Notes: generated by a model not told the origin, from the sequence alone. A stretch of 32,000 bases of DNA from Haloquadratum walsbyi C23 (GCF_000237865.1 NC_017457.1:60001-92000); one strand, 5' to 3'. Positions 4,360 through 24,891 are shown, counted from the first letter of the stretch. Numbers and translations are program-made.

Positions 4360-4425
4360 ATGTATTGAATTTTATTTTGCCTTATGTAACAGTCTGGCTC
4401 CGATCTATTCTGATGTTACATAAGG
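4360..4425 (+). repeat. copy 1 of the ~65-bp element: ATGTATTGAATTTTATTTTG, then CCTTATGTAACA, 22 nt, TGTTACATAAGG
   Basis: Perfect 12-bp inverted repeat with arms at 4380-4391 and 4414-4425 and a 22-nt spacer. It is preceded by a conserved AT-rich box. Intergenic. Confidence 0.9.
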
Positions 4426-5098
4426 GACTAATTGATAGATGTGACCACACCATAATTTAAAGATGGATATATCCAATCTAAGATAATAACAAAAGAAACA
4501 CCACTTGATGTAGCGAATCTCTATGATCAAGAGACGCACGGTGCAGACCACGCTATGCTACGAGACTATTCTCCTGCGTCAGCCCTGATGGCAGTATCGG
4601 AGAGCTGCAGGAGCGGACGACGAAACATCAGACGAGGCTCCTTCACGAGTGGGACGTATCCACAATGCCTGTGGCTATCGTCCAAGGTCGGCGTCCACGC
4701 CAGTATCATGACCACATTCACTAACTTGGGCAGGCAAAAGTTCTTGCCGATATCGACTAGACTGCGGTTGGTTCGTTAGTTGGTCGAAAGCTGATCAAGA
4801 AACCCCATATCGTGGCTACTGTAGCTAATGCTCTGCCTGATGACATCTGAATCCACACGGATTGTGCGCACGGGTATCCAATCTGCGTAGCCAACCAGAG
4901 CTGATGTCGCATCTCTCAACTGGTGATAGTAACGGGACTACACAACAGGCGGAACACGGCGGTAAAAAGCCCATGTGCATCTTAAGCGTCGGCAACAGCT
5001 TACGGAATTGTCGGTCGCTGATAATCAACGTCGTTTCCCGATATAGAGTAGCGACACTTATTCACAGCAACACTCAAAGATCTTGTACATAGTCGCTG

Positions 5099-5642
5099 AT
5101 GCTTGAGATAGTGAACATAGTCGGGTCGGGGGATATAGACCAGCGGTTAGATCTCCTCTCAGTATATACGGATGTTGAGCCACCACTAGCAAAGTACGAC
5201 CCCGAGATGTGCCACGGGATGTATCTGTTCGGTGACAACGAAGAGTCACCCTTAGTTACAATTTACACATCTGGAAAATACATAATTGTCGGTGCGGAAA
5301 GTGTAGACGAGCTTGAGGGGACAAGACAGGAAATGTTGCAAACGCTGTCTGAGTCTGATGAAATGAACGATATAGGAGACGCTCAAGTTGAAATAAGTAA
5401 TATTGTTGCGTCTTGAGATGTAGCTATGGAGCTTGACTTAGATCGAGTTTCTATCGAACTCGGGCTTGAAAATACTGAGTGCGACCCGAGAAATTTCCCC
5501 AGGGGTAGTCTACGATGATAGCAAGAACAACTGTACTGTGCTGATATTTAGAACAGGAAAGGTGACTATCACAGGTACAACTTCCCTCGTCGATATAGAA
5601 AACGCATATGAGCAGTTTTTGGAATTGCCTCCACAGCACTAA
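5099..5642 (+). pseudogene. TATA-box binding protein paralogue, disrupted (in-frame TGA plus 1-nt frameshift)
   Basis: The first TBP repeat is intact (MLEIVNIVGSGDIDQRLDL...TSGKYIIVGAESVDE...EISNIVAS). TGA follows at 5414-5416. The second repeat continues as DVAMELDLDRVSIELGLENTECDPRNFP. After an extra base near 5500-5501, the shifted frame reads GVVYDDSKNNCTVLIFRTGKVTITGTTSLVDIENAYEQFLELPPQH, ending at TAA 5640-5642. Confidence 0.8.
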
Positions 5643-5683
5643 TACTGTTCACAGAATTTCAGAGAGCTGGTCGGTTCAAGTAG

Positions 5684-6235
5684 TCAGACTTCACGAAGTC
5701 TATCTATCTCCTCCTGAATCTGCTGGAGAGCAGACTTTGCTTCCTCACATTCTGTCGTGCCTCCAATGATTGCCTTGTCGGTTGAAAAAATAAAAAGAGT
5801 TACTGCAAACTCTGGCGGTCGATACACAATCGCTGGGAACTGCTCTGGTTCATATTCAGTTTTCTCCAGTCCCAGAGCAATTGTCAAAGCTTCCAGATTT
5901 ACATCAACCTCTAACGTGCCGACGAAGACAGAAGTCACGTGACGAAACTCATACTCAGGCATCTTAACGCCAGCATCGGAAAGAAGCGTTCGTAACTGAG
6001 ACTCGGATTCTTCGAGATCGGCTTCAGTCTTCGCACCTCGAATCTGGAACGAGCCCATGCGGACAGGATTAATACAGGACTATCGTCCCCGCAATATATC
6101 CCCTCCTAGTCAAGTTAGTATCAATTGGAGTTTCGGCATTCTCAACCAAATCACCAACCAACAGACGAAGATCTAACCCTCACTCCAGCGACCTAATCCC
6201 ATCGCACTCGCAATCTCAAAGATACCTATTGGTGG
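5684..6235 (-). pseudogene. TATA-box binding protein paralogue, N-terminal repeat decayed by frameshifts and stops
   Basis: The 124-aa ORF (5684-6058) holds the end of repeat 1 and all of repeat 2 (GSFQIRGAKT..., LGLEKTEYEPEQFPAIVYRPPEFAVTLFIFSTDKAIIGG). Hand translation upstream on the minus strand gives broken TBP-like pieces in other frames: FEIASAMGLG from about 6220, then LDLRLLVGDLVENAE. The upper boundary is approximate. Confidence 0.65.
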
Positions 6236-6303
6236 CTCATCAGTTGATCTGGTTCTTCTGTTCGGTTACTGTTAATTCATCATAGACTACTTCAGGGGCG
6301 GAC

Positions 6304-7821
6304 ATGATTGTCTCAAACATGTCCGTGTCCTTGGACGAACTCGATTCACAACTCTTCAAATGTGCTGATATCATCCGTGATGCGGTTGATTCCACCGATT
6401 ATAAGGAGTATATCCTCCCGCTGGTCTACTATAAGGCTATCTCTGATGAGTTTGCGAAGCAGTATCAGAAGAATGTCACCGAGTACGGTGAGGAGTTTGC
6501 CCGCCGTGAGAATCTCTATGATGTTCCTGTCATCCCAGACGGATATATGTGGGATGACGTTCGAGCGGTCAGCGATAACGTGGATGAGGCACTCAACGAG
6601 AGTTTCGACGCACTCGTTGAGGCAAACCCCGAATTGAGAGGTGTTTTCCGAGCCGATTACATTGACGCCGATGCTCTCGGTGATGACCGTCTTGGACGCC
6701 TCGTAGAACATCTCTCGAAGTACGACTTAGACACGGATAGCGTTCCACCAGATATGCTCGGTGAGGCGTATATGGACTTGGTTCGCCACTTCGCAGAGGA
6801 GGAGGGCAAGTCTGGCGGGCAGTTCTTCACGCCACCACAGATTGTCAACCTCTGCGTTCGACTCGTTGATGAATTTGAGGATGGGCACACATTCCACGAT
6901 CCCACCGTTGGCTCAGGTGGAATGCTTATCGAAGCCGCTCGGTACTATCGTGAAGAGCAGAACGGCGACCCACAGAAATTCGAACTGACGGGGCAGGAAA
7001 TCAACCCTGATATCGCCGCTATCGCTAAAATGAACCTCTCCATTCACGGACTCAACGGGGAGATTGAACGAGAGGACTCACTCGCTTACCCGCAGTTTAC
7101 CGATGAGACAGATGACTCAGTTGCCCGCTTCAATAGAGTTCTCGCCAACTTTCCATTCTCCGCAGACTGGGCGAAAGACGAGCTTCAAGATGACCCCTAC
7201 GACCGTTTCGACTGGCACGAGAAACTCCCACGGGCAGATCGTGGTGACTACGCCTTCATTATGCACATCGCAAAGCAACTGAAGACACCTGAGCAGGATG
7301 GCGAGGGTGGGAAAGCGTCGATTGTGATTCCGCACGGCGTTCTCTTCCGCAAGCACGAGCAACGGTATCGTAAGCCAATGCTGGAGAACGATATGGTGGA
7401 AGCAATTGTTGGACTTCCCGAGAACCTTTTCCAGAACAACTCAATTCCATCTGCTGTGCTTGTGCTGAACACCGACAAACCAGAAGAACGAGAGGGGGAA
7501 GTACAATTCATCCACGCCGCAGATGAGGACTTCTACGACGAACTTTCCAATCAGAATCAGCTCACACATGAAGGGCTTGACCATATCATCGAAAACTTCC
7601 GAGGCTGGACAACCGAAGAGCGAGTGAGTCGAACGGTCGGAATGGATGAGATTCGAGAAAACGATTATAATCTAAATATCGCCCTGTACGTCGATACGAC
7701 CGAACCTGAGGAAGATATTGATGTTGAGGAGGAGCTGGCGAAGTTACGGGACTTACAGGCAGAACGAGACGATATTGAATCTCAAATGACTCAGCATATG
7801 GAGGCTCTGAAATATGAGTGA
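6304..7821 (+). CDS. hsdM: type I restriction-modification system, methyltransferase subunit
   Basis: 505 aa with an HsdM N-terminal region (LFKCADIIRDAVDSTDYKEYILPLVYYKAISDEF), SAM motif I (HDPTVGSGGMLIEA) and an NPPF-type motif IV variant (LANFPFS). An ATGAGTGA start/stop overlap links it to the next gene. Confidence 0.93.
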   Translation: MIVSNMSVSLDELDSQLFKCADIIRDAVDSTDYKEYILPLVYYKAISDEFAKQYQKNVTEYGEEFARRENLYDVPVIPDGYMWDDVRAVSDNVDEALNESFDALVEANPELRGVFRADYIDADALGDDRLGRLVEHLSKYDLDTDSVPPDMLGEAYMDLVRHFAEEEGKSGGQFFTPPQIVNLCVRLVDEFEDGHTFHDPTVGSGGMLIEAARYYREEQNGDPQKFELTGQEINPDIAAIAKMNLSIHGLNGEIEREDSLAYPQFTDETDDSVARFNRVLANFPFSADWAKDELQDDPYDRFDWHEKLPRADRGDYAFIMHIAKQLKTPEQDGEGGKASIVIPHGVLFRKHEQRYRKPMLENDMVEAIVGLPENLFQNNSIPSAVLVLNTDKPEEREGEVQFIHAADEDFYDELSNQNQLTHEGLDHIIENFRGWTTEERVSRTVGMDEIRENDYNLNIALYVDTTEPEEDIDVEEELAKLRDLQAERDDIESQMTQHMEALKYE

Positions 7822-9088
7822 CGACGCCGCACTGGACGAGTTTGGTGTAGGCTCAGAGGGTTCAAACAAGTCGGATACGGCTGTAAAAAGCAAGCAGAAA
7901 ACTGATGATTTACAAGCGCTGGAAGCATCACCAATTGAAGACTGGGAGTTGCTAAGGTTGGGTGATGTTCTGTCATTTGAGTATGGAGATAATCTGCCTG
8001 CGGATACACGAGAAGATGGTGAGATCCCTGTATACGGGTCTAACGGACAAGTAGATACCCACACAGAGGCAAATGTTGATACAGCAGGGATTATCATCGG
8101 GAGAAAGGGTTCTATCGGCAAAGGAGAATTCAGTATTAATCCGTTCTGGGCGATAGACACAACATATTATATAAGTGACAATGAAACAAGCGAAAATCTA
8201 CGATTCGTATATTACTTGTTACAGAATATGAAGCTTGAGAGGCTAAACGCCGCCTCAGCTATCCCTGGTCTAAATCGTAATGATGCTTATAATTTAAATA
8301 CGCTTATTCCACCGCTTTCAGAACAGCAGAAGATTGCTACCGTCCTCCGCACCGTTGACCAAGCGATTCAGAAGACTGAGGAGATCATAGAGCAAACTCG
8401 ACGAGCAAAAACAGGTATACAGCAAGAGTTGTTTACGCAAGGATACTATGACCACAGGTTTTTTGTGGAGACAAGAGTTGGCGAGTTACCAGAATCGTGG
8501 CGGTTAGAAAAAATAAAAAACCATACTGAACTTGTCTCTGGTGCTCACGTGAAATCGGAGTTAGTCTCTGATGATAGTTCTCTCACGCCGTATCTTACTG
8601 GGCCTGAAGACTTCGATGAACTTGGGTTTACAATGACCAAGTATACCGATGAGCCAACAAAATTCTGTAAAGAAGGAGACACACTTGTCACTGTCAAGGG
8701 TTCTGGGTGTGGAAAATCTACGTTCGCAGACCGACGTGCCTGTATTAGCAGACAACTCAAAGCACTACGACCGAATGGTAAACTGGAAGAACTCTACTTA
8801 TTTTACTTTGTTGAGACCAAGCAGAAACTTTTGAAAAGCCTTGCAGAGGGTTCTGCGATTCCAGGGTTGTCCAACTCCCATCTAACGGCTTTGGATATTC
8901 CGATTCCAAGTATAGAGGAGCAACGCAAAGTGGGTGAGGTCTTGAAAAAATACGACGACAGGATTGTCTATGAAAAAAAGTATAAGTCTCAACTCCAGCG
9001 TCTCAAACACGGTTTGATGCAAGACCTCCTCTCAGGCGACGTCCGAACAGCCGACGTTGATATAGAGATTCCACAGGAGGTCGCATAG
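7814..9088 (+). CDS. hsdS: type I R-M specificity subunit (first of two)
   Basis: 424 aa with two variable target-recognition regions separated by conserved helices (PPLSEQQKIATVLRTVDQAIQKTEEIIEQT and IPSIEEQRKVGEVLKKYDDRI...QLQRLKHGLMQDLLSG), the standard HsdS architecture. Confidence 0.9.
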   Translation: MSDDAALDEFGVGSEGSNKSDTAVKSKQKTDDLQALEASPIEDWELLRLGDVLSFEYGDNLPADTREDGEIPVYGSNGQVDTHTEANVDTAGIIIGRKGSIGKGEFSINPFWAIDTTYYISDNETSENLRFVYYLLQNMKLERLNAASAIPGLNRNDAYNLNTLIPPLSEQQKIATVLRTVDQAIQKTEEIIEQTRRAKTGIQQELFTQGYYDHRFFVETRVGELPESWRLEKIKNHTELVSGAHVKSELVSDDSSLTPYLTGPEDFDELGFTMTKYTDEPTKFCKEGDTLVTVKGSGCGKSTFADRRACISRQLKALRPNGKLEELYLFYFVETKQKLLKSLAEGSAIPGLSNSHLTALDIPIPSIEEQRKVGEVLKKYDDRIVYEKKYKSQLQRLKHGLMQDLLSGDVRTADVDIEIPQEVA

Positions 9089-9089
9089 T

Positions 9090-9362
9090 ATGGGTAGTGT
9101 CATATCTAAAGGCTGGGTCAATCATCTCACTATGAAGTGTTGGGAATGGACTGTAGTAGAGCGGGTAAGTCGGACAGTCAGGATGGAAGAGATCCGCGAA
9201 AACGACTACAATCTGAATATCGATTTATACGTCGATACGACCAAACCAGAGGAAGATATTGACGTACAGGAGGAACTGGCGGAACTACGCGAGTTGCAGG
9301 CAGAACGAGACGAGATTGAAGCGAAGATGACCCAGCATATGGAGGCTCTGAATTATGAGTGA
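9090..9362 (+). pseudogene. remnant of the 3' end of a second hsdM gene
   Basis: The last 71 aa of this 90-aa ORF (WTVVERVSRTVRMEEIRENDYNLNIDLYVDTTKPEEDIDV...MTQHMEALNYE) match the last 71 aa of HsdM (WTTEERVSRTVGMDEIRENDYNLNIALYVDTTEPEEDIDV...MTQHMEALKYE). By my hand count, 58 of 71 residues are identical. It carries no methyltransferase motifs. It ends in the same ATGAGTGA overlap with the following hsdS. Confidence 0.8.
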
Positions 9363-10710
9363 GGACATTACGCTGGATAAGTTCACAGAGGCTACCGCCT
9401 CTCAAGAGCGACAGGAGACACCAATAGGTGAGCTCCCAGTTGACTGGGACGTAGAGTGGTTGAAAGACGCAGTTGGGATTAATCCTGATGGTTTCTCTGA
9501 GGATGACTGGTCATCAGAGACATTTGAGTATATCTCGCTCTCAGAGGCATCTAATGGCGAAATAGAAAACAGTAAGACAATTCCTATCACGGACGCTCCA
9601 AGTCGGGCACAAAGAACAGTTCAGCAGGGTGATGTACTTGTGGGGACTGTCCGTCCAAAACAGAAAAGCCACGGGTTTGTCAGTGAGGAACACGCTGGGA
9701 AAATCTGTTCTTCTGGCTTTGGTGTCTTGCGAACTGAAACCCATTTTAACTCCCGCTATCTTCTTCAAGAAATCCTCTCAAACCGATTTTTTTCCCAGAT
9801 GGAGGCATATGTTGCAGGTTCAGGCTACCCTGCTGTCAAAATCAGTGACCTGAAGAAGCATCGAATTTCCATCCCACCTCTTGTGGAACAGAGGAAAATC
9901 GCAACCGTCCTCCACACCATCGACCAAGCGATTCAGAAGACCGAGGAAATTATCCAGGGGCTCCAAACGGCTCGTAAAGGACTTACTCAACAGTTATTGC
10001 GTTCTGGTTTTGAGGACGAAGCCAATTTAGTAAGCACCCGTTCTGGTCCTATCTCATTTGAGATCCCTTCTCATTGGAATGTTGTGACGATTGATAATAT
10101 TACTGACAATATATATCGGTATCCAACCTATCAAAATATTGATTACGTAGATGAAGGTGTTCCAGAGGTGAGAATTGGTATGTTAGACGGGGAGGGTTAT
10201 ATCGAACGAGGTGATGAAAAGTACATCTCTGAATCAACCTCAGAAGAATATCCCCGTACACAACTTGAACACGGTGATACGGTGATGGCTGTAAGGGGCG
10301 CTACGTTAGGAAAGACCGCCTCTGTTCCAGAGTGGTTAGATGGGGGCAATATTAATCCGAACCTAATTCGTATTTGCTCAAATGATGAGGTCTTAGATAG
10401 GTATCTCACGGAACTTTTCCTGAGTGGTCTGGTTCAAAGGCAAATAGAAGCTTTCTCTCAGCAAACAACGGTGAAAACAATCAAATCTGGAGACATTCGT
10501 AGAATTGCCGCCCCTATTCCGCCTGTAACTGAGCAAGAAAGAATAATGGATATACTATCTTCGTTTTCATCTCGTATTCAAAACGACGATTCGTATCTTT
10601 CCCGTCTCCAGCGTCTCAAGAGCGGTCTAATGCAAGACCTTCTCTCAGGTAAAGTCCGAACAACTAATACTAACATAGAAATTCCAGAAGAAGTCATCAC
10701 ATATGGTTAG
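9355..10710 (+). CDS. hsdS: type I R-M specificity subunit (second, different target-recognition domains)
   Basis: 451 aa. The conserved spacer helices are shared with the first HsdS (PPLVEQRKIATVLHTIDQAIQKTEEIIQG; RLQRLKSGLMQDLLSGKVRT), but both variable regions are unrelated to it. The stop overlaps the hsdR start. Confidence 0.9.
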   Translation: MSEDITLDKFTEATASQERQETPIGELPVDWDVEWLKDAVGINPDGFSEDDWSSETFEYISLSEASNGEIENSKTIPITDAPSRAQRTVQQGDVLVGTVRPKQKSHGFVSEEHAGKICSSGFGVLRTETHFNSRYLLQEILSNRFFSQMEAYVAGSGYPAVKISDLKKHRISIPPLVEQRKIATVLHTIDQAIQKTEEIIQGLQTARKGLTQQLLRSGFEDEANLVSTRSGPISFEIPSHWNVVTIDNITDNIYRYPTYQNIDYVDEGVPEVRIGMLDGEGYIERGDEKYISESTSEEYPRTQLEHGDTVMAVRGATLGKTASVPEWLDGGNINPNLIRICSNDEVLDRYLTELFLSGLVQRQIEAFSQQTTVKTIKSGDIRRIAAPIPPVTEQERIMDILSSFSSRIQNDDSYLSRLQRLKSGLMQDLLSGKVRTTNTNIEIPEEVITYG

Positions 10711-13675
10711 TATCCCATCCGAGCAGGGCGTTGAACGCTCGTATCTCTCGTGGCTTGACGGGTTAGGATGGGAAGTCCACGGACAAGATGGAAGTCGAGG
10801 AGCGAATGTCCTTGATGTAGAGTACGAACGTCGAAGCAATGAGGTTATTTACTGGAATTTACTGGCTGAACAGCTCATCGTGATCAATGACTCCCTCACA
10901 GAGGATAATGTCGAGAAGTTCGTTTCCTCGCTCAGACGTGATCTTGACGCTGAGAACTTGATGGACGGGAATGAAGCGTTCTATGAGTTACTGACCAAGG
11001 GAAAGACATTCTCAGTCAAGCAGAATGGGAGTGCCAGCAGGACGGTCTATATTGACCTGATTGACTACGAGAACCCAGAGAACAATCGCTTCCACGCTGT
11101 TAATCAGTTCTCTGTCTCCCGTGAAACGACGATCCGTCCCGACGTGAACCTCCTTGTCAACGGGATTCCGCTGGTGACGATGGAACTCAAGAGTGTCGCA
11201 CAGGACAACGACTGGCACAACGCTGTGAGCGACCTCCAAGCGTACGAAGATGATGTACCTCGACTGTTCGTCCCGACGCTATTCAACGTCGCCGCCGATA
11301 CGATGGAGTTCCGATACGGGGCAGTCGGAGCGTCCAAGGAGTTCTATGAGCCGTGGAATGATGCTCCCGAGCAGTACACAGATGACGGCGACGCAAAGCA
11401 GGCGATACAGGCACTCTGTAACCCGCAGACGATTCTCGATATTCTCAAGAACTTCGTGTTTTACGAGCGACGAGCAGGTGGGAATGCCAAAATTATTCCA
11501 CGGCATATGCAGTACTACGCTGTCAATCGGATGCTGGAGCGGGTTGACCGAGACGAACACGACCGAGGGCTCATCTGGCACACCCAAGGATCGGGCAAGT
11601 CATTCACGATGCTGTATGCGGCAGAGAATCTACTAGAGCGGGCTGTTGCTCGTAACCCGCAGGTGTTCATCATCGTCGATACGGACAAGCTGAATAGTCA
11701 AATGCGAGACCAACTGGCGAATCTCTCGCTGGGAGCGTGGACGGAAGCAGAGAGCATCGACCATCTACAGGAACTTATCGAACAGGGTCAGAGCGAGCTC
11801 ATTCTTACGACCATCCAGAAGTTCCAAGATGTTGACCCAGACAGTCAGGGGAACGACGAAGTCATCGTGATGTCCGATGAGGCTCACCGATTTATGGAAG
11901 CTGACCTTGGGAGTCGATTGGATGCCGCACTGCCAAGCTGCACTCACTTCGGCTTTACTGGTACGCCTGTCCGTGAGGGTGAACAGCACAAAGACCGCAA
12001 CACCTTCCGTGAGTTTTCACCAGAGGGCGAAGATTATATCCACCGCTATTCGGTCAAACAGGGGATTGACGACGAGCTGATTCTCCCTGTGTACTTCACG
12101 CTCCGCCACGAGATGGAGTGGCAGATTGATGAGTCGGGGCTTGATGAAGAGTTTGAACGGCAGTTCCGCGGACTGAGTTCGGATGAGAAGCGGGAACTCA
12201 TCCGTGACAACGTAACTGCGAGGATGTTGGCGGAGATTGAGCCACGAGTACAGAAAGCGGTTGAAGAAATCGACCAGCATTATGAGGAGTCTGTTTCTCC
12301 GAACAACTGGAAGGGAATGGTTGTCACCCCAAGCCGTCGGTCGGCAGCGATGTACGGTGAACGGCTCGTAGAACGGCGAGGTAAAGACGAGGTCGAGGTT
12401 CTATACACCTCGAACAAGGACGACCCAGACCTCATCCAGCAGTTCCATACGGACTCTGAGGAACGTGATTCGATAGTTAACGAGTTCAAAGACGAGGACA
12501 ATCCAAAACTATTGATTGTCCACAATATGCTTCTGACGGGATTTGACGCTCCGATTCTGAAGACGATCTATCTTGACCGTAACCTGAAGAATCATAATCT
12601 GATGCAGGCAATCGCTCGAACGAACCGCCCTGCAAGTGGGAAGGAAAATGGTGAGATTGTCGATTTCCAAGGCGTCTTTGAGAATATCGACGAGGCTCTC
12701 GATTACGATACGGAGACGCAGTCGTACGCCGCTCGTGACAAAGATGAGCTGTTTGACGACCTCGTTGACCAGTTGGAAACGGTGATAGATATTTTCGAGG
12801 GGATTCCGAAAACAGACACGCAGGAAGCCACATCGGACGCAGTTGAGCAAGTGCTGACACACCCGACTCGCCGTGAGTTCAAGCAGGGATTCCGTCGGCT
12901 TCAAGATCTGTATGAGGCGGTCGCACCTGACAGTCGACTCGTCGAGAAGGACATCGAGAGGCGGTACAAGTGGCTGAGTCGGATTCACGTTGCGTTCAGG
13001 CGGACAACTAGCGGTGAAGATGACCCTGAAGAAGATATGCGAGAGAAGACCCGAGAGATAGTCAGTGAAAACGTCGCAATTGACACTGTGAAACGAGACT
13101 TTCCAACGTACAAACTCGGTGAGGACGTCTTAGAAGAAGTGGATGAGATAGATAATCCGTCTGTGAAAGCCTCCCAAATCGCCCACGCAACCCAGGAGCA
13201 TCTCAACCCACGAGAAAACCAGAATCCTCGATATAAGCGACTTAGCGAGCGGGTGACTGATGTTGTTGAGCGATGGCAAGGTGGCGATATAGCCGACCCT
13301 GACGCAGTTGAGGCGTTACAATCAGTCGAAGAGGAGATTCTGGAGGTTGAGGAAGAAGCTGAAGAGCAGGGAATGACCGATAGTGAGTTTGCTATCTACA
13401 CGCACCTTACCGAGGAAACGCCAGAAGCAATTGAGTCAGACGAGCAGGCAGAAGCCGTCGCTAACGAGATTATTGAGCAGTTCTACGACCGTGTTGATCA
13501 CGGGTTTGCTGGGTGGCAAACGAACCAGCAGACGATTGCTGAGATTGAACGCATCTTACTGGACGTGCTTGTGGTGGAGTATGATCTTGGAGACCTGATC
13601 GATGATGAGTTTGTGGACACGGTTCGAGAGTATCTGATACAGAACCACGAAGCGACAGTTGACCACTATGAGTGA
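10703..13675 (+). CDS. hsdR: type I R-M restriction/translocase subunit
   Basis: 990 aa with an N-terminal PD-(D/E)xK nuclease (RPDVNLLVNGIPLVTMELKS), Walker A (HTQGSGKSFTM), a DEAH box (VMSDEAHR) and helicase motif VI (QAIARTNR). Confidence 0.95.
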   Translation: MVSIPSEQGVERSYLSWLDGLGWEVHGQDGSRGANVLDVEYERRSNEVIYWNLLAEQLIVINDSLTEDNVEKFVSSLRRDLDAENLMDGNEAFYELLTKGKTFSVKQNGSASRTVYIDLIDYENPENNRFHAVNQFSVSRETTIRPDVNLLVNGIPLVTMELKSVAQDNDWHNAVSDLQAYEDDVPRLFVPTLFNVAADTMEFRYGAVGASKEFYEPWNDAPEQYTDDGDAKQAIQALCNPQTILDILKNFVFYERRAGGNAKIIPRHMQYYAVNRMLERVDRDEHDRGLIWHTQGSGKSFTMLYAAENLLERAVARNPQVFIIVDTDKLNSQMRDQLANLSLGAWTEAESIDHLQELIEQGQSELILTTIQKFQDVDPDSQGNDEVIVMSDEAHRFMEADLGSRLDAALPSCTHFGFTGTPVREGEQHKDRNTFREFSPEGEDYIHRYSVKQGIDDELILPVYFTLRHEMEWQIDESGLDEEFERQFRGLSSDEKRELIRDNVTARMLAEIEPRVQKAVEEIDQHYEESVSPNNWKGMVVTPSRRSAAMYGERLVERRGKDEVEVLYTSNKDDPDLIQQFHTDSEERDSIVNEFKDEDNPKLLIVHNMLLTGFDAPILKTIYLDRNLKNHNLMQAIARTNRPASGKENGEIVDFQGVFENIDEALDYDTETQSYAARDKDELFDDLVDQLETVIDIFEGIPKTDTQEATSDAVEQVLTHPTRREFKQGFRRLQDLYEAVAPDSRLVEKDIERRYKWLSRIHVAFRRTTSGEDDPEEDMREKTREIVSENVAIDTVKRDFPTYKLGEDVLEEVDEIDNPSVKASQIAHATQEHLNPRENQNPRYKRLSERVTDVVERWQGGDIADPDAVEALQSVEEEILEVEEEAEEQGMTDSEFAIYTHLTEETPEAIESDEQAEAVANEIIEQFYDRVDHGFAGWQTNQQTIAEIERILLDVLVVEYDLGDLIDDEFVDTVREYLIQNHEATVDHYE

Positions 13676-14390
13676 GGTACGATTACACGAGCTAGAATTG
13701 CTGGGTGAGAGCGTCGAGTACGAACTACGGCGGAGTGCAGAGGCGTCAGAGCCACGGATTGACGTCGATATTCACGGGGTGAGGGTAGTCGTCCCAGAGA
13801 CTGCTGATTTTCAGCCAACAGAGCTACTGAAACAGAATGCATCGTGGGTGCTGGAGAAACAGCGAGTGTATCAGAAGTATCGTGAGGAAGCCCCTGAGCG
13901 GACGTTTGAGGCTGGCGAGAGATTTCCGTTCCTCGGAGAAGAACACAAGTTGGTGGTTGAATCTCGGCAGTCTCACGCTGTGTCAGACCGGACGATTCAT
14001 CTGCGAGAGAGCGCTGTCGCACAGTCGTCACTCAAACAAGCACTACGGAATTTCTACCGAAGTCGGGCACGCAAACACTTCGTTGATCGTGCCGACCAGT
14101 ATGCTTCTCAGATGGGTGTTGAGTATAAGCAGATTGAGATTCGGAATCAGCGGACAAGGTGGGGGAGTTGTTCAACGTCAGGAACACTCGGACTCAACTG
14201 GCGGTTGATGATGGCTTCGCCTAACGTTATCGACTACATCCTTGTCCACGAGTTAGCACATCTCCGTGAGCCGAATCACACGCAAGCGTTCTGGGATTTT
14301 GTCGCAGAGTACGATCCTGACTACGTGGAACACGCCGAATGGCTTGAGGAAAACAGTACGCAACTCATCTTTTCTCAAGCCGACCTATGA
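13668..14390 (+). CDS. DUF45/YgjP-like zinc metallopeptidase (HExxH)
   Basis: RNQRTRWGSCSTSGTLGLNWRLMMASPNVIDYILVHELAHLREPNHTQAFWDFV is the DUF45 signature with an HELAH zinc motif. The track starts at a TTG (13659). I prefer ATG 13668, which forms an ATGAGTGA overlap with the hsdR stop. Confidence 0.85.
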   Translation: MSEVRLHELELLGESVEYELRRSAEASEPRIDVDIHGVRVVVPETADFQPTELLKQNASWVLEKQRVYQKYREEAPERTFEAGERFPFLGEEHKLVVESRQSHAVSDRTIHLRESAVAQSSLKQALRNFYRSRARKHFVDRADQYASQMGVEYKQIEIRNQRTRWGSCSTSGTLGLNWRLMMASPNVIDYILVHELAHLREPNHTQAFWDFVAEYDPDYVEHAEWLEENSTQLIFSQADL

Positions 14391-14939
14391 AACTGCAAGT
14401 TGCTCTATTTCCGCCGTTATATCCTTGATAGACGACGAGATCTGGTTGAGGTCAGTAAGCCCAGTGCAGACAACCTTCCCGCTGGCGAAAATCAGGAGGA
14501 CAGCATCTTGACCACGGTAAATTAGAGCAGGAAATTGCTCGGGTTCGTACTCGGCTTGCTCCAGTCCGAGTCCGATAGCAATTGCTTCTAACGACAGAGT
14601 CGAATCAACTTCTGCTGTTGCGACGATGTTCTTGATTTCGGCAGTAGGTTCGTATTCAAAGTTCAGTAACTCACGCATCAGCGTATTCACCCGCCTGACC
14701 ACCTCCTCGAAATGTGCTGGTGATGTCGCTCCCACAATCGAGCATTTGCCACTTCGGTAAAACGGCACGTAGGTGTCATCGGGGGCAAAGCGAGCTTGCA
14801 ACCAGTGGTTTTCAGATGGTTCGTAGGTGACAGAATTGACTTCGGATCGTTGTTCAAAGGTCTCAGCCAACGCCGATAACTCAAGCTCCTGCTGGTAGGT
14901 CAACATCCCAACGACGTTCGCAATCTCAAACTCTGCCAC
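14385..14939 (-). CDS. tbp: TATA-box binding protein paralogue (intact, two repeats)
   Basis: 184 aa. Repeat 1 reads FEIANVVGML...YRSGKCSIVGATS. Repeat 2 reads IKNIVATAEVDSTLSLEAIAIGLGLEQAEYEPEQFPALIYRGQDAVLLIFASGKVVCTG. It is convergent with the DUF45 gene, with a 6-nt 3' overlap. Confidence 0.9.
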   Translation of the reverse strand: MAEFEIANVVGMLTYQQELELSALAETFEQRSEVNSVTYEPSENHWLQARFAPDDTYVPFYRSGKCSIVGATSPAHFEEVVRRVNTLMRELLNFEYEPTAEIKNIVATAEVDSTLSLEAIAIGLGLEQAEYEPEQFPALIYRGQDAVLLIFASGKVVCTGLTDLNQISSSIKDITAEIEQLAVS

Positions 14940-15122
14940 TATAGAGTATTTCCCAGGTGAGAGTAAAAAGCCACGAGTTCCGAGCGGACTACTCTGTGAC
15001 TGATTGGAGTCTCACCAGTGCTGTTCTCTACGCTAAGTATTATATTGACTCTGCCAGAATAACTACAAGATTACTCAAGCACAGATTATCTTGGATGCCG
15101 ATCCGCACTCTGTTTTCCCTGC

Positions 15123-16199
15123 TCAAATATCATCATTTTCTCTGATAGAGATTTCGACACCACAGGCTTCTGCCATCCGCCCCAGTTCACGTTGTTTCTG
15201 ATCCCAGCTTAAGTTGACTTCAAGATAGTATTCCTGTTCTAGTTCACGTGCTTGCTTCATCTCCTTGTCGTTGTATGTTGGTTCGTCATTGACGATAGCA
15301 CGATTCTTCGCAGGGATGTATGGGAGTGGCTCAATCGCAGAGATAAGGTCGTGATTTTGGATGAGGTAGTTCACTATCGACGCCATCAGGTCGCTCTGGA
15401 CAGAATCTGTAAAGGTCTCAGCGACATCACCACTCTGAGAGATTTCGCCAGAATATGGCTGTGTTATCCTGTCCTCAGAGTCAGTTGATGAATCTTCATT
15501 ATCCAATCGACGTGGAGTGTCCGTATCAATCTCGGACTCGATATCGTTGACGAGCCTGTCAATCATCTCTTTCGCTTGCGTTTGTGCTTCCGATTCGATA
15601 GCGTCAGAAACGGTGTCAGTGAGCAAATCCACAACCGCTGTGGCTAATTCTTCTTTGTCATCTGTCAGCGTATCCCGAGATTTTCGTAACTTCCTGATGT
15701 GTTCGATAATCGCTATTGATTCTTCATTGTGTATCGTGCTAACTTGATACGCCTCAATGATACCCTTCTTGTCTGGAAGTTTCCGAAGTGTCGTCCGTTC
15801 AACCGCCTCGACTTTGAATTGTGAATCACTGTCACCGAGATATCGGTAGTAGAACTCATACTCCTGTCCGTTGGTGAGAATACCCAATCTGACATTCTCA
15901 CTCTGGAGATATGCACTCAGTTGCTCTCGATGCTTGGAGGTGAGCGTTTTACCCAGTCCCTTTGCTTCGAGAAATGCCACGGGTTGTCCGCCGAGTATAA
16001 GAGCATAATCGACTTTGAATGTTTTACTGAATGCCTTCACCGAGTACTCTAGTTCGGTGTTAGCTGGGATCTCCCAGCCAAGAAGTTCGATGAAATCGTT
16101 TAGTATAGACGCTTTCGTAGTTGCTTCCTGCATCTGCGGTGAATCCTCGATGATGGGTTGAGCAGACTCAACGTAGTCCCGAATCGATGCTGTGTCCAT
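15123..16199 (-). CDS. orphan HsdR_N/Mrr-like PD-(D/E)xK domain protein with acidic coiled middle and unknown C-terminal domain
   Basis: ILNDFIELLGWEIPANTELEYSV...FKVDYALILGGQPVAFLEAKGLGKTL...REQLSAYLQSENVRLGILTNGQEYEFYY matches the N-terminal nuclease-like domain of type I HsdR (D...EAK core, then the TNG..Y.F strand). It has no helicase motifs. The track starts at 16271; I prefer the internal ATG at 16199 (MDTASIRDY). Confidence 0.7.
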   Translation of the reverse strand: MDTASIRDYVESAQPIIEDSPQMQEATTKASILNDFIELLGWEIPANTELEYSVKAFSKTFKVDYALILGGQPVAFLEAKGLGKTLTSKHREQLSAYLQSENVRLGILTNGQEYEFYYRYLGDSDSQFKVEAVERTTLRKLPDKKGIIEAYQVSTIHNEESIAIIEHIRKLRKSRDTLTDDKEELATAVVDLLTDTVSDAIESEAQTQAKEMIDRLVNDIESEIDTDTPRRLDNEDSSTDSEDRITQPYSGEISQSGDVAETFTDSVQSDLMASIVNYLIQNHDLISAIEPLPYIPAKNRAIVNDEPTYNDKEMKQARELEQEYYLEVNLSWDQKQRELGRMAEACGVEISIRENDDI

Positions 16200-16501
16200 T
16201 CTTACAAGTGATCTTCTCTCGTGTGATTCAAAGAAATGTGGGCAAAGACTCAGTAACCCTCCATTCGTCATTGGTCTCCTTGTCTGTAGTTACTCGTACT
16301 GACGCTCTTACTTCGTCTACGTGGGCGGTAGCTCACTCGCAGAACCTGTTTATTTCGCCCTGAGGTGATGTCAGTTCAGGGCGGAGGACTAGTTACCAAT
16401 GGGCTTCCACGGTGGTGGTATCACTTCGGTGATTCTTAAAATGATGATAAATATCGTCGACTCTTCTTGTAGATGAAAAAATCCTAATACAGACAAGAAT
16501 T

Positions 16502-16567
16502 ATGTATTAAATTTTATTCTACCTTATGTAACAATCTGATTCTGATATACTCTAATGTTACATAAGG
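16502..16567 (+). repeat. copy 2 of the ~65-bp element: ATGTATTAAATTTTATTCTA, then CCTTATGTAACA, 22 nt, TGTTACATAAGG
   Basis: Perfect 12-bp arms at 16522-16533 and 16556-16567 with a 22-nt spacer. It has the same orientation and the same upstream AT-rich box as copy 1. Confidence 0.9.
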
Positions 16568-17027
16568 CACAGCCGGTCGGTCTCGCAGAAACAGTGGTCT
16601 TCATAACGAGCGTGTTCCAACAAGACATCTATTCGACGGTTGCCAAGATTGTGATGCCACAGTCACAAACCAGACAGTTGACCCAAAGGGATCGAATCTG
16701 AATCAAAGCTCCTTCTGTGAAATAATGCAAGCGATGCTGGACTGATTAGCAGGCTTCAAGGAGGAGATTATGCTTGGTATTGGGACAGGTGATGCTCGTG
16801 GTGCGTATGAGAGCTAAAAAACGAACCGTGATTCGGATGATTGAGACTGACGAACTGGGGGAAATCGACACAGATATATCAGCGCTCAGCAGATACTCAT
16901 TCAGTCCTGTCTTGTTGAGGCTCCCAATTACAACAAAAGGGGCTGGTCCGAGGGTTTTCAGTATTCGCCCTCGAACAACTTCAATTCTCAATAGTGATAA
17001 CCACATCAATTTTTTGTCATTGACAAT

Positions 17028-17228
17028 ATGGTGATGAATATGGACTTACCTGTCAAATACGGCACAGCCGCTATTATTAGGGTGCTTGCCATACTCGGCG
17101 TGGCGATGTTTGATGATGTCGGTATCCCTCTTGATCCTGAATTGCTTATTGTAACCATCGGTGTCATTCCACTGTATATTTTATATCGGATCGGTCGCTG
17201 GGTAGTGGGTCTTATACAATCACCATGA
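17028..17228 (+). CDS. small predicted membrane protein (two hydrophobic helices)
   Basis: 66 aa. AAIIRVLAILGVAMF and LLIVTIGVIPLYILY are hydrophobic stretches separated by an acidic loop. The antisense 93-aa ORF looks less protein-like. The start is uncertain (ATGs at 17028, 17034, 17040). Confidence 0.45.
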   Translation: MVMNMDLPVKYGTAAIIRVLAILGVAMFDDVGIPLDPELLIVTIGVIPLYILYRIGRWVVGLIQSP

Positions 17229-17644
17229 GTGATAATCACATCTGCACAGGCGACGTCTCTGATTTTCTTATTCTTATTAACTGTCACGATCCCGGTTTAC
17301 ATCTCGAAAACGGGGTGTTCAATCTGATATGTCTATTATGGAAATAAAATAATAAACGCAGTCATGCGATTATTTATCAACTGAGTGACTACTGTCCTGA
17401 CACAACTAACTCACTGTAACTGTGTGCGTACGATCTTTGCTATGTATCCAGCGTATGATATTTTTTATCGAGATAGTATCAGTAAAGATGCCAATGTTCT
17501 CAGATCGGTATCTGCTGTTCTAATCAACTGCAGACAGACAGCGAAAGCGACAGCACTCGTAGTTTTTTATTCTCCCGACTAAATTTCAATTTGATACTTA
17601 CAACCGCTAGAAATATTCTTGTCTCTGTGTCAGAACAGGAGCGT

Positions 17645-17984: not shown

Positions 17985-18458
17985 TTAATTGGGGATAATC
18001 ATCAGAGTAGTGAGTTTAATAAATTTCCACAGTTCAATCGGGGCACTATCGGGACTGCCTGAGCTTGCACCACCACTTCCGTCGATTATAAGCGAGAATC
18101 CAATCAAAAGGATTACACTAACGACAATTCCAAACACTGCAAACCCAATAGCATTAGCGGTACTACTATTGATACACCGTTGTCCAATACCGTAAGAGCC
18201 CCTTCCTGCAGTTGCATATCTAACAAAGGCTGCAATTAGTGGACCACTGAGCACTGCAAATGAGAGGATTATAATCGAAATAACGCCAGTAATTATTCCA
18301 CCGGATATGCCCTCCCCTCCGGCAAATTGTAATAGGAGGATGATGGCAAGAAGTCCAAACCCGACACCGATAACGAAATAAAATTGAATAGTTCGGATAA
18401 TCAGTGGAATGTCGATGCCAAGAGCATCGCCTCCTCTAAATTCGGTTTTAAAAGGCAT
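17985..18458 (-). CDS. multi-pass membrane protein, Gly-rich
   Basis: It has several long hydrophobic segments (FYFVIGVGFGLLAIILLLQF, GGIITGVISIIILSFAVLSGPLIAAF, AIGFAVFGIVVSVILLIGFSLII). The track start is 18521; the internal ATG at 18458 (MPFKTEF) is an alternative. It lies in tandem with the upstream minus-strand gene. Confidence 0.6.
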   Translation of the reverse strand: MPFKTEFRGGDALGIDIPLIIRTIQFYFVIGVGFGLLAIILLLQFAGGEGISGGIITGVISIIILSFAVLSGPLIAAFVRYATAGRGSYGIGQRCINSSTANAIGFAVFGIVVSVILLIGFSLIIDGSGGASSGSPDSAPIELWKFIKLTTLMIIPN

Positions 18459-18566
18459 ACCGAGTGATCTTATGTAAAATATTGTCTTGTTGAACCCCGG
18501 CTTTGTTACATAAGATAACATCGCTGAGAGAACGCTGCTAGTGTTGTATTTGCGTTTCTGGCGGGG

Positions 18567-19449: not shown

Positions 19450-19569
19450 ATTTCTGAGGCGTCAGACATCGACCCCTCATTTTATTTCCACGTTGACAGA
19501 TATAGTGTACACTCGTTGTATCAACGGCGAAAGGGACAGTGTTGCAAGCACTGCCCTAACTACATGAAA

Positions 19570-20238
19570 ATGTCAGTAAACATTGACGGAGATTCAATAT
19601 CTCCATCGTCAAGTTGTACCACCGACGTTATTAAACAATTGATTTCTAAGATTCATGAGCAACATCAAACCATAGACAGTCTTGAATCTGAAATATCTGA
19701 TATTCGTGATCAGTTAGCAACTCGTGCCAAGTCAGATGCAATCGATAAAAAACAGATCTCTGAACAAGAAGAACGGATATCAGAACTCGAGGACAAAACA
19801 GACGACTCAGAGACGTCTAAGGACCAGTCTTCCACCTCTGACTCCGAGGGTGAGGACACGAACACGCAATCAACGGCTCTCGAACAAGTCGTTGCTCTTC
19901 CAGACGACGTTGCTACTGAGAATCTTACTTCTAATCAGAAACGGGCGAGGTCAATCGCTCGTCGGATTGATGAGTATGGCAAGTCTGTGCCAGCAGGTAT
20001 CGCAATCACGTCAACTCGGATCCGAGACATTCTCTCAGGGCTGGAGGATAAGAGAATTCACAGGCAGACAGTCCAACGAGTCGCAGACTTCTTGAAACGA
20101 TTTGGAGACTGTGAGATTGACACGAAGGAGACACGTGGAGGCAAGGACGTGGTAGTGTTCTCTGAATCAGTTGTCGAAGATATCACGAGTGTTGTGACGG
20201 GCACCAAGGATCTCGGTGTGACTCCAGCAATCATATAG
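19570..20238 (+). CDS. coiled-coil protein with C-terminal wHTH-like domain
   Basis: The start is placed at the ATG (MSVNIDGDSISPSS) that aligns with the start of the truncated paralogue at 22950. The sequence upstream is conserved between the two copies at nucleotide level, but with a 2-nt length difference, so it is non-coding. The C-terminal region KRARSIARRIDEYGKSVPAGIAITSTRIRDILSGLEDKRIHRQTVQRVADFLKRFG looks like a DNA-binding wHTH. Confidence 0.65.
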   Translation: MSVNIDGDSISPSSSCTTDVIKQLISKIHEQHQTIDSLESEISDIRDQLATRAKSDAIDKKQISEQEERISELEDKTDDSETSKDQSSTSDSEGEDTNTQSTALEQVVALPDDVATENLTSNQKRARSIARRIDEYGKSVPAGIAITSTRIRDILSGLEDKRIHRQTVQRVADFLKRFGDCEIDTKETRGGKDVVVFSESVVEDITSVVTGTKDLGVTPAII

Positions 20239-21520: not shown

Positions 21521-21601
21521 GATGCGGAACTGAGCCGACCTGCCATTTAGATTCATGTTATACTGTCCATGGGCAAGAAGAGAGGCTCGTGGAATCGCTC
21601 A

Positions 21602-22480: not shown

Positions 22481-22584
22481 ATGTCCTGAGTAGCCTACTG
22501 ACACAATAGTGACGAGTCGTGGGTTGTCTGTTTGTGGTTGTTTAACTTGTGGTCAGTGTTGGTTCGTTGTTTTATTATACTAAC

Positions 22585-22776
22585 TCAGTACGGATTCCAG
22601 AAGTACACTAACCCACCATACAAGACTGCATTCACGCCTGCCAGTGAGAGTGCTGAAAGGAGGCTTCTGTCGGTGAACAGATACCCGCATACGAAAATGA
22701 TCACGAACCAGAGGAGACCCTGCACAATCGGACTCTGTCCGAGTGACTGAATATCTGTGTCGACGAAGGACATCAA
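22585..22776 (-). CDS. small predicted membrane protein
   Basis: 63 aa with two hydrophobic helices (GLLWFVIIFVCGYLF, LSLAGVNAVLYGGLVYF). I prefer it over the overlapping 104-aa minus-strand frame, which is Arg/Ser-rich and lacks structure-like patterning. Confidence 0.45.
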   Translation of the reverse strand: MMSFVDTDIQSLGQSPIVQGLLWFVIIFVCGYLFTDRSLLSALSLAGVNAVLYGGLVYFWNPY

Positions 22777-22949
22777 TTGTCGAGTTGGATTCGTCGAATA
22801 AAACGTCCGTTGAGACTCTCTCAGTCAGTAATTCATTTGTTATCATAGACGCAGGAATAACTTCAATTATGATGTTGAAAAGTAGTGTTGACACTCGCTG
22901 TTATCAAACGGCGATGGACAGTGTAAGCGCACTTTCCTCAAAAGATACC

Positions 22950-23129
22950 ATGATTGGAATTGAAGAGGATTCAATCTCCCCGTCGTCAGGTAGCGTAGAG
23001 AAGATAATTAATCAATTAGTCGAGACTATTCACGAGCTGCAAGACAGTCTGTCGGAAGTTCGTATCGGCTTAAAGAATCTGTTGAAGTCAAATTTGTGCG
23101 TTCTTAACCGAGTTTGGCGTCTAATATGA
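22950..23129 (+). pseudogene. truncated paralogue of the 19570-20238 gene (5' end only)
   Basis: MIGIEEDSISPSSGSVEKIINQLVETIHELQDSLSEV parallels MSVNIDGDSISPSSSCTTDVIKQLISKIHEQHQTIDSLESEI. It then diverges and stops after 59 codons. The upstream ~70 nt are also conserved with the 19.5-kb copy. Confidence 0.55.
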
Positions 23130-23420
23130 AATACTCAAAATTTAATCAGTATTCCTCTTGATCAGAGTTATCCGAGTCAGTATTGATTCTTCTATCTGAT
23201 TGATAACGCTCTGCCCTGCCTTTGTTGTGCTCGTCGATATTAATTAGATAGTCCGGAAATCAGTGTTCTCACAGCTGTATATCAGGTGAGGTATCGTCTG
23301 AGTGACCAATATTAATTCACCGGGGACAGGTGCTCCTGATCAACGAGACAATAATCACTCATATCGTCTTGTTTGCGGGCTGTCTGGACAGTCGTTTTTG
23401 AAGCCCACCCGATTATCTGG

Positions 23421-23483
23421 ATGTAATTTTGTTTTTACCTTATGTAACAATCTGCTTTCACCCCGTTCAATTATTACATAAGG
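23421..23483 (+). repeat. copy 3 of the ~65-bp element: ATGTAATTTTGTTTTTA, then CCTTATGTAACA, 22 nt, TATTACATAAGG
   Basis: Arms at 23438-23449 and 23472-23483 pair at 11 of 12 positions, with a 22-nt spacer. Same orientation as copies 1 and 2. Confidence 0.85.
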
Positions 23484-23840
23484 TTCAGATCAATTAGTTT
23501 TTTGAAATTGTGATTTTTGCATTCAGTACACCGTCCGTATTTAATCGTCGAGGACAAACTCCGTGCTGTTTTCTTCACTCCTCGCTCACTACTTTTTCGT
23601 GATAACATACGCTTGACAGACGGGAGGTGTGGAGAACAGGATAATTAAAAAATTTCACATACTGACGTTTGAATAACAGTGAGACCACGATAGTCTTTAA
23701 GAGGTTTTATTCAACATATCATATGTCTTATGAGAGTAGAAAAATCATATAATAAATGACTCACATACGGAGCACACTACGATTCGAATTGAGTCTGATA
23801 CCACAGCCACAACCGATGATACAGTCATATCAATACTGTC

Positions 23841-24373
23841 ATGATCAAGAAAGAATCCTCAACTCCAAACGGCAAATTATCGCCAGCTGATATCCAACCC
23901 AGCACTAACCTCCCCGATGTCGACCTCTCCGGCATTGATCTTGTCAGCACTGACTTCACGGATATTAATTTCTACGGTGCTGATCTCTCTGATACCAGTC
24001 TCGTGGATGCTAACCTCTCTGCGACCGACCTTTCAAACGCCAGCTTCGATGGTGCCGACCTCTCAGACGTTGACCTTTCAGGTGCCGAACTCTCCGGCGT
24101 GAATCTCACGAGTGCAGATCTTACCGAGGCTGACCTCACTGACGCCAACCTTAGAGAAGCCGAACTCACCGCCGCTGACCTCACGCATATCACTCTTACA
24201 CGTGCCAATCTCTCCTATGCCAAACTCGATAGAGCCAATCTCCGATACGCCTCTCATGGGCTCAGGTAAATAGTGCTGATATCACGGACGCCTGTCTCAT
24301 TGAAGCCGATTTCTGCCACGCTGACCTCTCTTACACCGATCTTGGAAGAACCGATGTTCGGAGCACAAAATGA
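23841..24373 (+). pseudogene. pentapeptide-repeat protein, apparently frameshifted near 24250-24262
   Basis: The 142-aa ORF is a continuous A(D/N)LXX pentapeptide array (ADLSDTSLVDANLSATDLSNASFDGADLSDVDLSGAELSGVNLTSADLTEADLTDANLREAELTAADL...). After its stop, another frame continues the same repeat (AQVNSADITDACLIEADFCHADLSYTDLGRTDVRSTK) to TGA at 24371-24373. Confidence 0.7.
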
Positions 24374-24891
24374 GTACAGTACGATTGTATCAAGTAAAGA
24401 TGGACGAGTGCGAAGAAGGGTATGTCACTGAATCGTATCTCTCTCTACTCGGTGCGTGTGTCCATAGTGACGGTCAGTGGTGAACGGATGACCTCTATGG
24501 AATATTGTCCGTTAGAGTGTATATATAATCTCTCGATGGTTATTGATGCATTCACAAGGAATACCGTGGTTTGATACTAATACTCAATGTTGGCAACAGA
24601 TGTTGATATGAATATCAGTACCTCAGACTTTCTGGAAGAGAGGCAGTGATTTCATCGATTGGCTCTGGTGTGACAGCACGACCTTACGTAACAATTCGTC
24701 TCTCATTTTATCCGATAATAGACAAGATGGTGACATACCAACCTCTCAGAATCTTGAGCCGTCACCTCTCTTTGTCACGTGGAAGAGTATTTACTGATTG
24801 TAGTTTTATTTGTTACTCGACAGGTGCTAGTGGGAAAGCGCTCTCCATCCATGTCGTACGAGATGCTGATAGAACGTAGTCTCAGATAATG

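Follow-up and report, generated by a model that had tools for sequence, protein, structure and literature searches.

Why do copies of one palindromic sequence lie where functionally unrelated groups of genes meet on a haloarchaeal plasmid? This question is raised by a stretch of 32,000 nucleotides (nt) that belongs to the 100,258-bp plasmid PL100 of Haloquadratum walsbyi C23; the whole stretch is called the window, and positions are counted from its first letter. On the basis of the DNA alone it had been noticed that imperfect palindromes of like orientation divide the window into four blocks, and a cassette-like mechanism of site-specific recombination, as known from integrons, had been proposed (the sequence-only reading). 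Comparison with related plasmids, viruses and environmental contigs leads us to another answer, to which we give an even chance: the elements are promoter-operator sites of a regulon of the protein family DUF6788 that double as crossover points.

The palindromes of the window

A repeat search yielded three units of 69 nt on the plus strand at 4360-4428 (copy 1), 16502-16570 (copy 2) and 23418-23486 (copy 3), exactly where the sequence-only reading had placed three full copies. Each unit consists of a T-rich flank (AATTTTRTTYT) followed by CCTTATGTAACA-N22-TGTTACATAAGG, a 46-bp palindrome whose 12-nt arms are perfect or near-perfect. The palindromes proper occupy 4380-4425 (preceded by the T-rich flank ATGTATTGAATTTTATTTTG), 16522-16567 and 23438-23483 (with the right arm TATTACATAAGG). 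A supposed solo arm at 24682-24693 turned out to be the left arm, CCTTACGTAACA, of a decayed full palindrome on the plus strand (24682-24727), which has a 22-nt centre and the right arm TAATAGACAAGA (7/12). This right arm is better preserved in three environmental relatives of PL100 (L048, L071, L075) than in the window. A fifth, degenerate copy, TCTTATGTAAAA-N24-TGTTACATAAGA, had been overlooked; it is found on the minus strand at 18468-18515. The spacings between the copies are 12.1, 1.9, 5.0 and 1.2 kb, with multi-gene blocks in between. Chance does not explain these copies: five exact arms occur in the window, compared to 0.002 expected per strand, and nine arm matches with at most two mismatches, compared to 2.0 expected; none of 100 shuffles reached nine.

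Judged by the T-rich 5' flank and the similarity of their centres, copies 1-3 are oriented alike. The statement that all copies point the same way is true of only four copies; the degenerate copy is probably in opposite orientation. Copy 1 heads toward a plus-strand TBP pseudogene, which is the next co-directional gene, copy 2 toward the coupled small open reading frames (ORFs) 16774-17228, and copy 3 toward a pentapeptide-repeat gene that begins 358 nt downstream. The inverted copy heads toward a minus-strand membrane-protein gene (ORF 17985-18521) and, read on the minus strand, ends 9 nt before its probable ATG (18458). The decayed copy is located 165 nt 3' of orc1. Copy 3 plus both its flanks is conserved in L033 and L048.

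A conserved dyad at the start of DUF6788 genes

The consensus of the dyad is YCTTRYNNAACA-N19-25-TGTTNNRYAAGR, i.e. two 12-nt arms around a variable centre. A scan with exact arms detected 25 genome loci with unrelated centres of 19-25 nt, mostly on plasmids, in Haloquadratum J07HQW2, Halococcus, Halocatena, Halovenus and Haladaptatus and also in one metagenome-assembled genome (MAG) of Planctomycetia. Metagenomes contributed 31 further loci, and the same dyad with one or two arm mismatches occurs in Halorubrum; the palindrome scan of IMG/VR gave 0 matches. In one Halococcus sequence (L005) three sites are spaced 441 and 654 nt apart, with one small ORF between each.

When all ORFs around the sites were clustered, DUF6788 proved to be the only gene common to the loci. 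DUF6788 (PF20586) is a zinc-ribbon protein of 110-120 amino acids (aa) with an invariant C-x4-C-x-C...H motif. The family comprises at least 596 haloarchaeal cluster representatives in the protein collection, corresponds to the viral phrog_22659 and has bacterial relatives; it is not mentioned in the literature searched. At more than 20 independent loci from at least ten genera and two viruses, the ATG of the DUF6788 gene follows 0-8 nt after the end of the palindrome. This arrangement is shared by every lineage sampled, namely Halococcus, Halorubrum, Halovenus, Halocatena, Haladaptatus, Halobacterium, contigs of PL100 type, Halanaeroarchaeum, Halalkalicoccus, Haloplanus, Natrinema and phage phiCh1. 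In phiH, palindrome and DUF6788 gene are separated by the short gene PhiH1_245. A second palindrome is often located 3-38 nt after the DUF6788 stop codon. On plasmids, the gene belongs to the maintenance backbone and adjoins orc1, ParA or TRAM genes.

The arms co-vary with the protein. The main type is CCTTATGTAACA; phiH and phiCh1 have CCTTATCAAACA, Haloplanus, Natrinema and Haladaptatus YSMS36 have TCTTACCAAACA, Halanaeroarchaeum has CCTTGTGTAACA, Halalkalicoccus CCTTGTACAACA and a Leptolyngbya plasmid TTCTTATGTACA. In each of these five variants, which track the DUF6788 lineages, both arms are changed symmetrically. Mismatches of a single arm inside a copy are mostly uncompensated. In phiH, TTTAATA stands in the centre of the palindrome, and the arm is followed after 1 nt by the first ATG. 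The one case in which a start has been mapped is the constitutive transcript T8; it begins at 31672 (annotated in MK002701.1), inside the right arm (31667-31679). Since the transcript lacks the left arm, its RNA cannot form the hairpin, and the symmetry acts on DNA. The phiH dyad brackets the core promoter and works on DNA. A dyad at a fixed position relative to the start of a regulator gene, which overlaps a mapped transcription start in one case and co-varies with the lineage of the protein, is what is expected of an autoregulatory operator.

In the explanation that we prefer, the elements of the window would be orphan copies of a conserved dyad site whose home is the core promoter of the DUF6788 gene on haloarchaeal plasmids and myohaloviruses. 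In that position, TATA box and transcription start would lie between the two 12-bp arms. The most likely ligand of the arms is a dimer of a plasmid-encoded protein whose specificity evolves together with the site; the prime candidate would be the DUF6788 protein, which PL100 encodes outside the window (CCC41894.1). The orphan copies on PL100, with their T-rich, TATA-like 5' flank, would head transcription units and may regulate them. Because elements that head transcription units lie by construction between unrelated blocks, their position at the joints would be explained without recombination. As dispersed, palindromic and probably protein-bound repeats, they would at the same time be preferred crossover points, at whose arms whole transcription-unit blocks may be deleted, exchanged or inverted.

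The closest parallel among known regulators is given by the KorA/KorB operators of IncP plasmids and by the operators of other autoregulated repressors. There, too, a short palindrome heads several backbone operons, precedes the regulator gene, overlaps the core promoter and co-varies with the regulator lineage. In contrast, the promoter is here of the archaeal TATA/TFB type, and the half-sites are 31-37 bp apart from centre to centre and bracket the TATA box, whereas the operators of the KorA/KorB type are compact palindromes of 12-16 bp. A further difference is that the candidate binder is a zinc-ribbon protein without a recognised DNA-binding fold.

Two other functions of the palindromes were considered and rejected. 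TBP-specific TATA boxes in the arms are incompatible with the arm positions, which misfit a start at the ATG. For a parS-like centromere the order of the half-sites is opposite, and ParB or ParA is encoded at only some of the loci.

Similar sites were also observed in Bacteria. In the Planctomycetia MAG and its metagenome (L011, L012, L015, L024, L027, L049, L050, L056), the identical 12-nt arms form the outer part of a hairpin with a 21-bp stem (dG -19 kcal/mol), which is REP-like and lies between housekeeping genes. A distant homologue of DUF6788 is encoded 176 nt downstream of one copy, which suggests that the protein-site pair is conserved across domains. On plasmid3 of Leptolyngbya sp. 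NIES-3755 (L082 3379-3424), TTCTTATGTACA-N22-TGTACATAAGAA follows 37 nt after the stop codon of a 30%-identical DUF6788 homologue; extra half-sites are found nearby, and an SNF2 helicase gene lies downstream, as on contigs of PL100 type.

Gene blocks and their junctions in relatives

The gene content of the blocks agrees with the sequence-only reading. The 12.1-kb block between copies 1 and 2 (4429-16501) contains TBP pseudogenes, the type I restriction-modification (R-M) genes hsdM, two hsdS and hsdR, a YgjP/DUF45 gene, TBP and an HSDR_N-like gene. The other blocks of the window contain N6/N4 methylases, ORFans, the pentapeptide gene and orc1. The G+C content of the 12.1-kb block is 48.4%, that of the DNA on either side 42-43.5%. 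With 43.5%, the block between copies 2 and 3 is AT-richer than its neighbour, as had been judged by eye. The division into four blocks is correct in that the three full copies are located at the joints, and incomplete in that the fifth copy lies inside what had been taken as one block of 6.9 kb.

Relatives of PL100 show what happens at these joints. In an environmental contig of Lake Tyrrell type (L046, KB651265.1), window positions 4219-4425 are fused to 16502-17426 via one hybrid element, and the 12.1-kb R-M block is absent. The left flank of the hybrid stems from copy 1, its centre and right side from copy 2; the crossover was therefore located inside the 12-nt left arm. Since the G+C content of the block is above that of its surroundings, insertion is favoured over ancestral presence. 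In L073, the right flank of copy 2 (16568-16720) follows a new left flank and a centre that resembles that of copy 3, and the crossover is in the right arm. This flank has three different left partners (in the window, L046 and L073) and is joined to them each time at the element. Furthermore, the homology of L073 stops 2 nt from the right arm of the decayed copy, and the homology between the Halococcus sequences L010 and L005 begins 2 nt before an arm.

A corresponding case is known from viruses. 'Inversion 2', which distinguishes phiH1 and phiCh1, comprises 31,932-34,126 and was described as 'nearby Int2' (PMC6210493). In both viruses the segment is flanked by palindromes of this family, and its right boundary at 34,126 is the end of one of them (palB). 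In ChaoS9, the 'inversion 2' genes occur in a third order.

Taken together, about six of about 20 junctions are on elements, which fill about 1% of the compared DNA, and none of the 111 other exact direct 12-mer pairs in the window is used as a junction. The palindromes are therefore real recombination hotspots.

Relatives also show at least 12 breakpoints away from the palindromes, among them those at window positions 3544, 4150, ~16800, 23686, 24129, 24288/24312 and 24643. For example, Hqrw_5063 belongs to a module of 607 nt whose homology ends sharply at 3544 and 4150 and not at an element (L068 and L090-L093, anchored on the copy-1 flank gene). The homology of L069, L070 and L072 stops 37 nt beyond the left arm of the decayed copy, and L048 has a deletion within the pentapeptide gene. 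A comparison of paralogous regions on Halococcus plasmids showed that the palindromes keep their place in a conserved backbone and that the indels lie elsewhere. Thus, the idea that blocks are lost or reordered precisely at the palindromes is borne out by L046, L073 and 'inversion 2' and fails at many other breakpoints; in part, junctions are independent of elements and elements occur in a conserved backbone.

Two more arrangements in this region were noted. In L068, 53 nt matching window 4098-4150 are present twice, 3.1 kb apart, and resemble att-type direct repeats around an insertion that bears its own palindrome. L069 contains at 3119-3272, immediately adjoining the 3' region of orc1, a piece of 154 nt from the window ORFan gene 19516-20238 (window 19951-20104, 89% identical). 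This piece is further evidence of mosaicism among arrangements of PL100 type.

Linked tyrosine recombinases and alternative explanations

Several observations weigh against the promoter-operator explanation. For copies 1-3, the next start codon is 200-670 nt away and not 0-8 nt as at the DUF6788 genes, and their centres are without a clear TATA box. A comparison of DUF6788 with PDB by sequence and with NCBIfam gave no match, and a Foldseek search with the AlphaFold model (pLDDT 89) revealed no known DNA-binding fold in PDB. Identity over 12 nt is very short for ordinary homologous recombination, yet five to six junctions are located here, which argues for an active process. Finally, DUF6788 and a tyrosine recombinase gene are linked in phiH, phiCh1, ChaoS9, Halorubrum L057, Halobacterium pKBTZ03_58 and contigs of PL100 type. 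The crossovers may arise through a linked recombinase, through breakage or pausing at the protein-bound palindrome, or by repeat-mediated deletion, which has been documented in Haloquadratum (PMC3119063). In the promoter-operator explanation, they may thus stem from homologous or palindrome-stimulated recombination or from the neighbouring tyrosine recombinase.

On the contigs that encode the exact DUF6788 protein of PL100, the gene of a 378-aa Xer-like tyrosine recombinase is located ~870 nt upstream of the DUF6788 gene. In L077, L043 and L069, the module consists of the integrase gene, a perfect palindrome 161 nt after its stop codon, an AT-rich spacer, a second palindrome and DUF6788. In phiH and phiCh1, int2 adjoins DUF6788 and the palindromes; in L057, the gene of a 220-aa integrase ends 34 nt before a palindrome. 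A recombinase, for which the sequence-only reading had proposed a search outside the window, is encoded beside a perfect palindrome on these contigs of PL100 type. At most of the DUF6788 loci that were sampled, the neighbouring 3-4 kb contain no recombinase gene. Among six further PLSDB DUF6788 loci (3-kb flanks), one has a tyrosine recombinase gene. The Halococcus loci contain conserved ORFs without a match to a recombinase Pfam, and two recombinase queries found no homologue there.

If these enzymes acted on the palindromes, the latter would be true site-specific sites of the linked Xer-like recombinase (the 378-aa enzyme of PL100 type and the Int2 family in myohaloviruses), as in the cassette model of the sequence-only reading. 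We regard this as possible, though doubtful. DUF6788 would then be an accessory or directionality factor; direct sites would excise circles that re-insert at any other site, and opposite sites would invert the DNA between them. The primary task of such a system may be the resolution of plasmid multimers, like that of Cre/lox of P1. Besides the gene order of the three modules, of L057 and of the two viruses, with their palindrome-bracketed inverted segment, its boundary at the end of palB and the third order in ChaoS9, this model accounts for L046 as an exact 'empty site' and for L073 as the result of flank swapping. It is also in line with the direct orientation of four of the five window copies, with the foreign composition of the excised block and with the use of the sites far above that of the 111 other direct 12-mer pairs. 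However, the non-homologous centre of 19-25 nt misfits the 6-8 bp overlap of a tyrosine-recombinase core site, and the crossover occurred once in the left and once in the right arm. The rarity of recombinase genes at the further PLSDB loci, their apparent lack at those of Halococcus, the at least 12 breakpoints off the sites and the stability of the palindromes in the Halococcus backbone also speak against it, as does the promoter-linked position of the sites.

The comparison with known site-specific systems is equally divided. With integron attC sites and IntI, including those of archaeal integrons (PMC9668308), the elements share imperfectly conserved palindromes with variable centres, which often follow right after a stop codon and form arrays of the same orientation; a missing block leaves one hybrid site, and a tyrosine recombinase gene lies beside a 'first' site. 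Unlike attC, the stem of the palindrome is a perfect 12 bp without extrahelical bases, bulges or R/L boxes, and the cores ATGTAAC/GTTACAT are each one base off RYYYAAC/GTTRRRY. Moreover, the blocks are operon-sized (1-12 kb) and have their own promoters, crossovers occur in either arm, and the recombinases lack the IntI signature: the IntI-specific domain TIGR02249 of NCBIfam had no match in the 378-aa enzyme of L077 and scored 16.8 bits in the 220-aa enzyme of L057 (cut-off 265). The two enzymes are similar to generic Xer proteins, far below the equivalog cut-offs. The remark that the arms misfit the attC core is thus confirmed, and the cassette hypothesis as a whole keeps L046, L073, 'inversion 2' and the linked recombinase on its side, without an attC/IntI identity. 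As in lox, FRT and dif sites, in Cre/loxP of P1 and in XerCD/cer, the inverted arms are 12-13 bp long, within the 11-13 bp typical of such sites. As in these systems and in multimer resolution, the site is located beside a recombinase gene in a maintenance region of plasmids or prophages with ParA, and direct copies delete and inverted copies invert. In contrast, the spacer of 19-25 nt differs between recombined partners, where lox and dif require identity over 6-8 bp, and many dispersed copies exist per replicon. The Int1 system of phiCh1 and phiH, in which a tyrosine recombinase and repeats invert a tail-fibre segment, operates in the same viruses; Int1, however, uses clusters of short repeats inside the tail-fibre genes, whereas the palindromes flank another segment, from DUF6788 to ParA, beside Int2. 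The phiH/phiCh1 literature searched contains no description of the sites and the function of Int2.

Both explanations might also be combined. An undescribed system, in which the Xer-like recombinase acts together with DUF6788 at palindromes that are also promoter-operators, would turn transcription units into cassettes that can be excised, inserted or inverted, and the pair would be conserved into Bacteria (Planctomycetia, Leptolyngbya); we consider this unlikely.

It is improbable that the 69-nt units are small non-autonomous mobile repeats (MITE-, SMR- or PATE-like, or REP-like and mobilised by DUF6788) and that the block structure is incidental. The unit common to copies 1-3 is indeed longer than the palindrome, palindromes lie on both sides of the DUF6788 gene, as REPs flank RAYT genes, and the hairpin of the Planctomycetia MAG is REP-like and separates housekeeping genes; one of its copies adjoins a DUF6788 gene. 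PATEs and SMRs are numerous in Haloquadratum (PMC3119063). Dispersed extragenic palindromes that flank a small gene, and repeat-mediated deletions at such palindromes, are features shared with REP/RAYT and with PATE/IS200-IS605 of Haloquadratum (PMC3119063). However, PL100 is reported to be free of SMRs (PMC3119063), no target duplication surrounds the 69-nt units, no relative differs by the unit alone, and DUF6788 contains neither HUH nor DDE motifs. In contrast to those systems, the palindromes have no linked HUH/Y1 transposase or TnpB. Neither the motif nor its variants were found in the literature searched or in the PATE/SMR supplements that list the mobile elements of Haloquadratum. The fixed distance of 0-8 nt to the ATG and the transcription start within the arm indicate a promoter element and not random insertion.

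It is very improbable that the palindromes are RNA hairpins, i.e. terminators, stability elements or structures of the 5' untranslated region: they often follow 2-66 nt after a stop codon, as single strands they fold significantly (dG -7.6 to -9.6 kcal/mol, z -2.6 to -5.0) and the lineage-specific arm changes keep the pairing, but the T8 start excludes the hairpin from the phiH transcript, the arm sequence itself is conserved beyond pairing from Haloquadratum to Halococcus while mismatches within copies are uncompensated, an Rfam search with the palindromes gave no match, and the T-run precedes the stem instead of following it.

The pairing of the palindrome with DUF6788, its link to Int2-type recombinases and to unexplained published rearrangements does not appear in the literature searched. 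With the dyad at its own promoter, DUF6788 gains a testable partner with 12-bp arms. In the model haloviruses phiH and phiCh1, the palindromes are candidate sites of the uncharacterised Int2 and may explain the published 'inversion 2'. The comparison also shows how natural populations of Haloquadratum acquire or lose whole defence modules, for example the type I R-M block of PL100. If recombination were directed by an enzyme, a new mechanism of cassette exchange in Archaea would result, an operon-scale analogue of the integron whose cassettes have their own regulated promoter.

Further observations on PL100 and its relatives

Hqrw_5063 is 100% identical to the window ORF 3731-4081 (minus strand), and the window orc1 (24892-26097) falls into the same 90%-identity cluster as the PL100 Cdc6 protein CCC41954.1. 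Two cdc6 genes of PL100 have been named, one of which is Hqrw_5083 (PMC3119063); the window orc1 is taken to be this gene. Look-ups of the window orc1, HsdM, pentapeptide and HSDR_N-like proteins for exact matches gave none, and a megablast search of the window against PLSDB and phage records was likewise without a match.

Just upstream of orc1, a 55-nt inverted repeat (26154-26208 / 26502-26556) with 93% complementarity and a 293-nt spacer is accompanied by extra GTCAAGTG repeats. This inverted repeat is the counterpart of OriP2, which has been described as an ORB-type origin of PL100. As this repeat at 26154-26556 represents the true origin repeats, the idea that the palindromes are an ORB or origin element was rejected.

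The two hsdS genes share direct repeats that are 71-81% identical (7606-7842/9147-9383, 8306-8388/9871-9953 and 8980-9106/10593-10719) and could permit shuffling of specificity domains. TBP genes or pseudogenes stand beside R-M genes on PL100 (window 14385-14939 and 5099-6061). On the Halorubrum contig L057 (10199-10336), an Eco57I-type R-M gene is likewise followed by TBP, and the same contig carries the integrase, a palindrome and DUF6788.

In the window, the tail of the pentapeptide-repeat gene (23841-24370) is frameshifted. Among environmental relatives of PL100 (L048, L066, L071, L074-L076) the gene is hypervariable, and internal deletions and a replacement of the N-terminus occur. On L077, a pentapeptide protein of 554 aa follows DUF6788.

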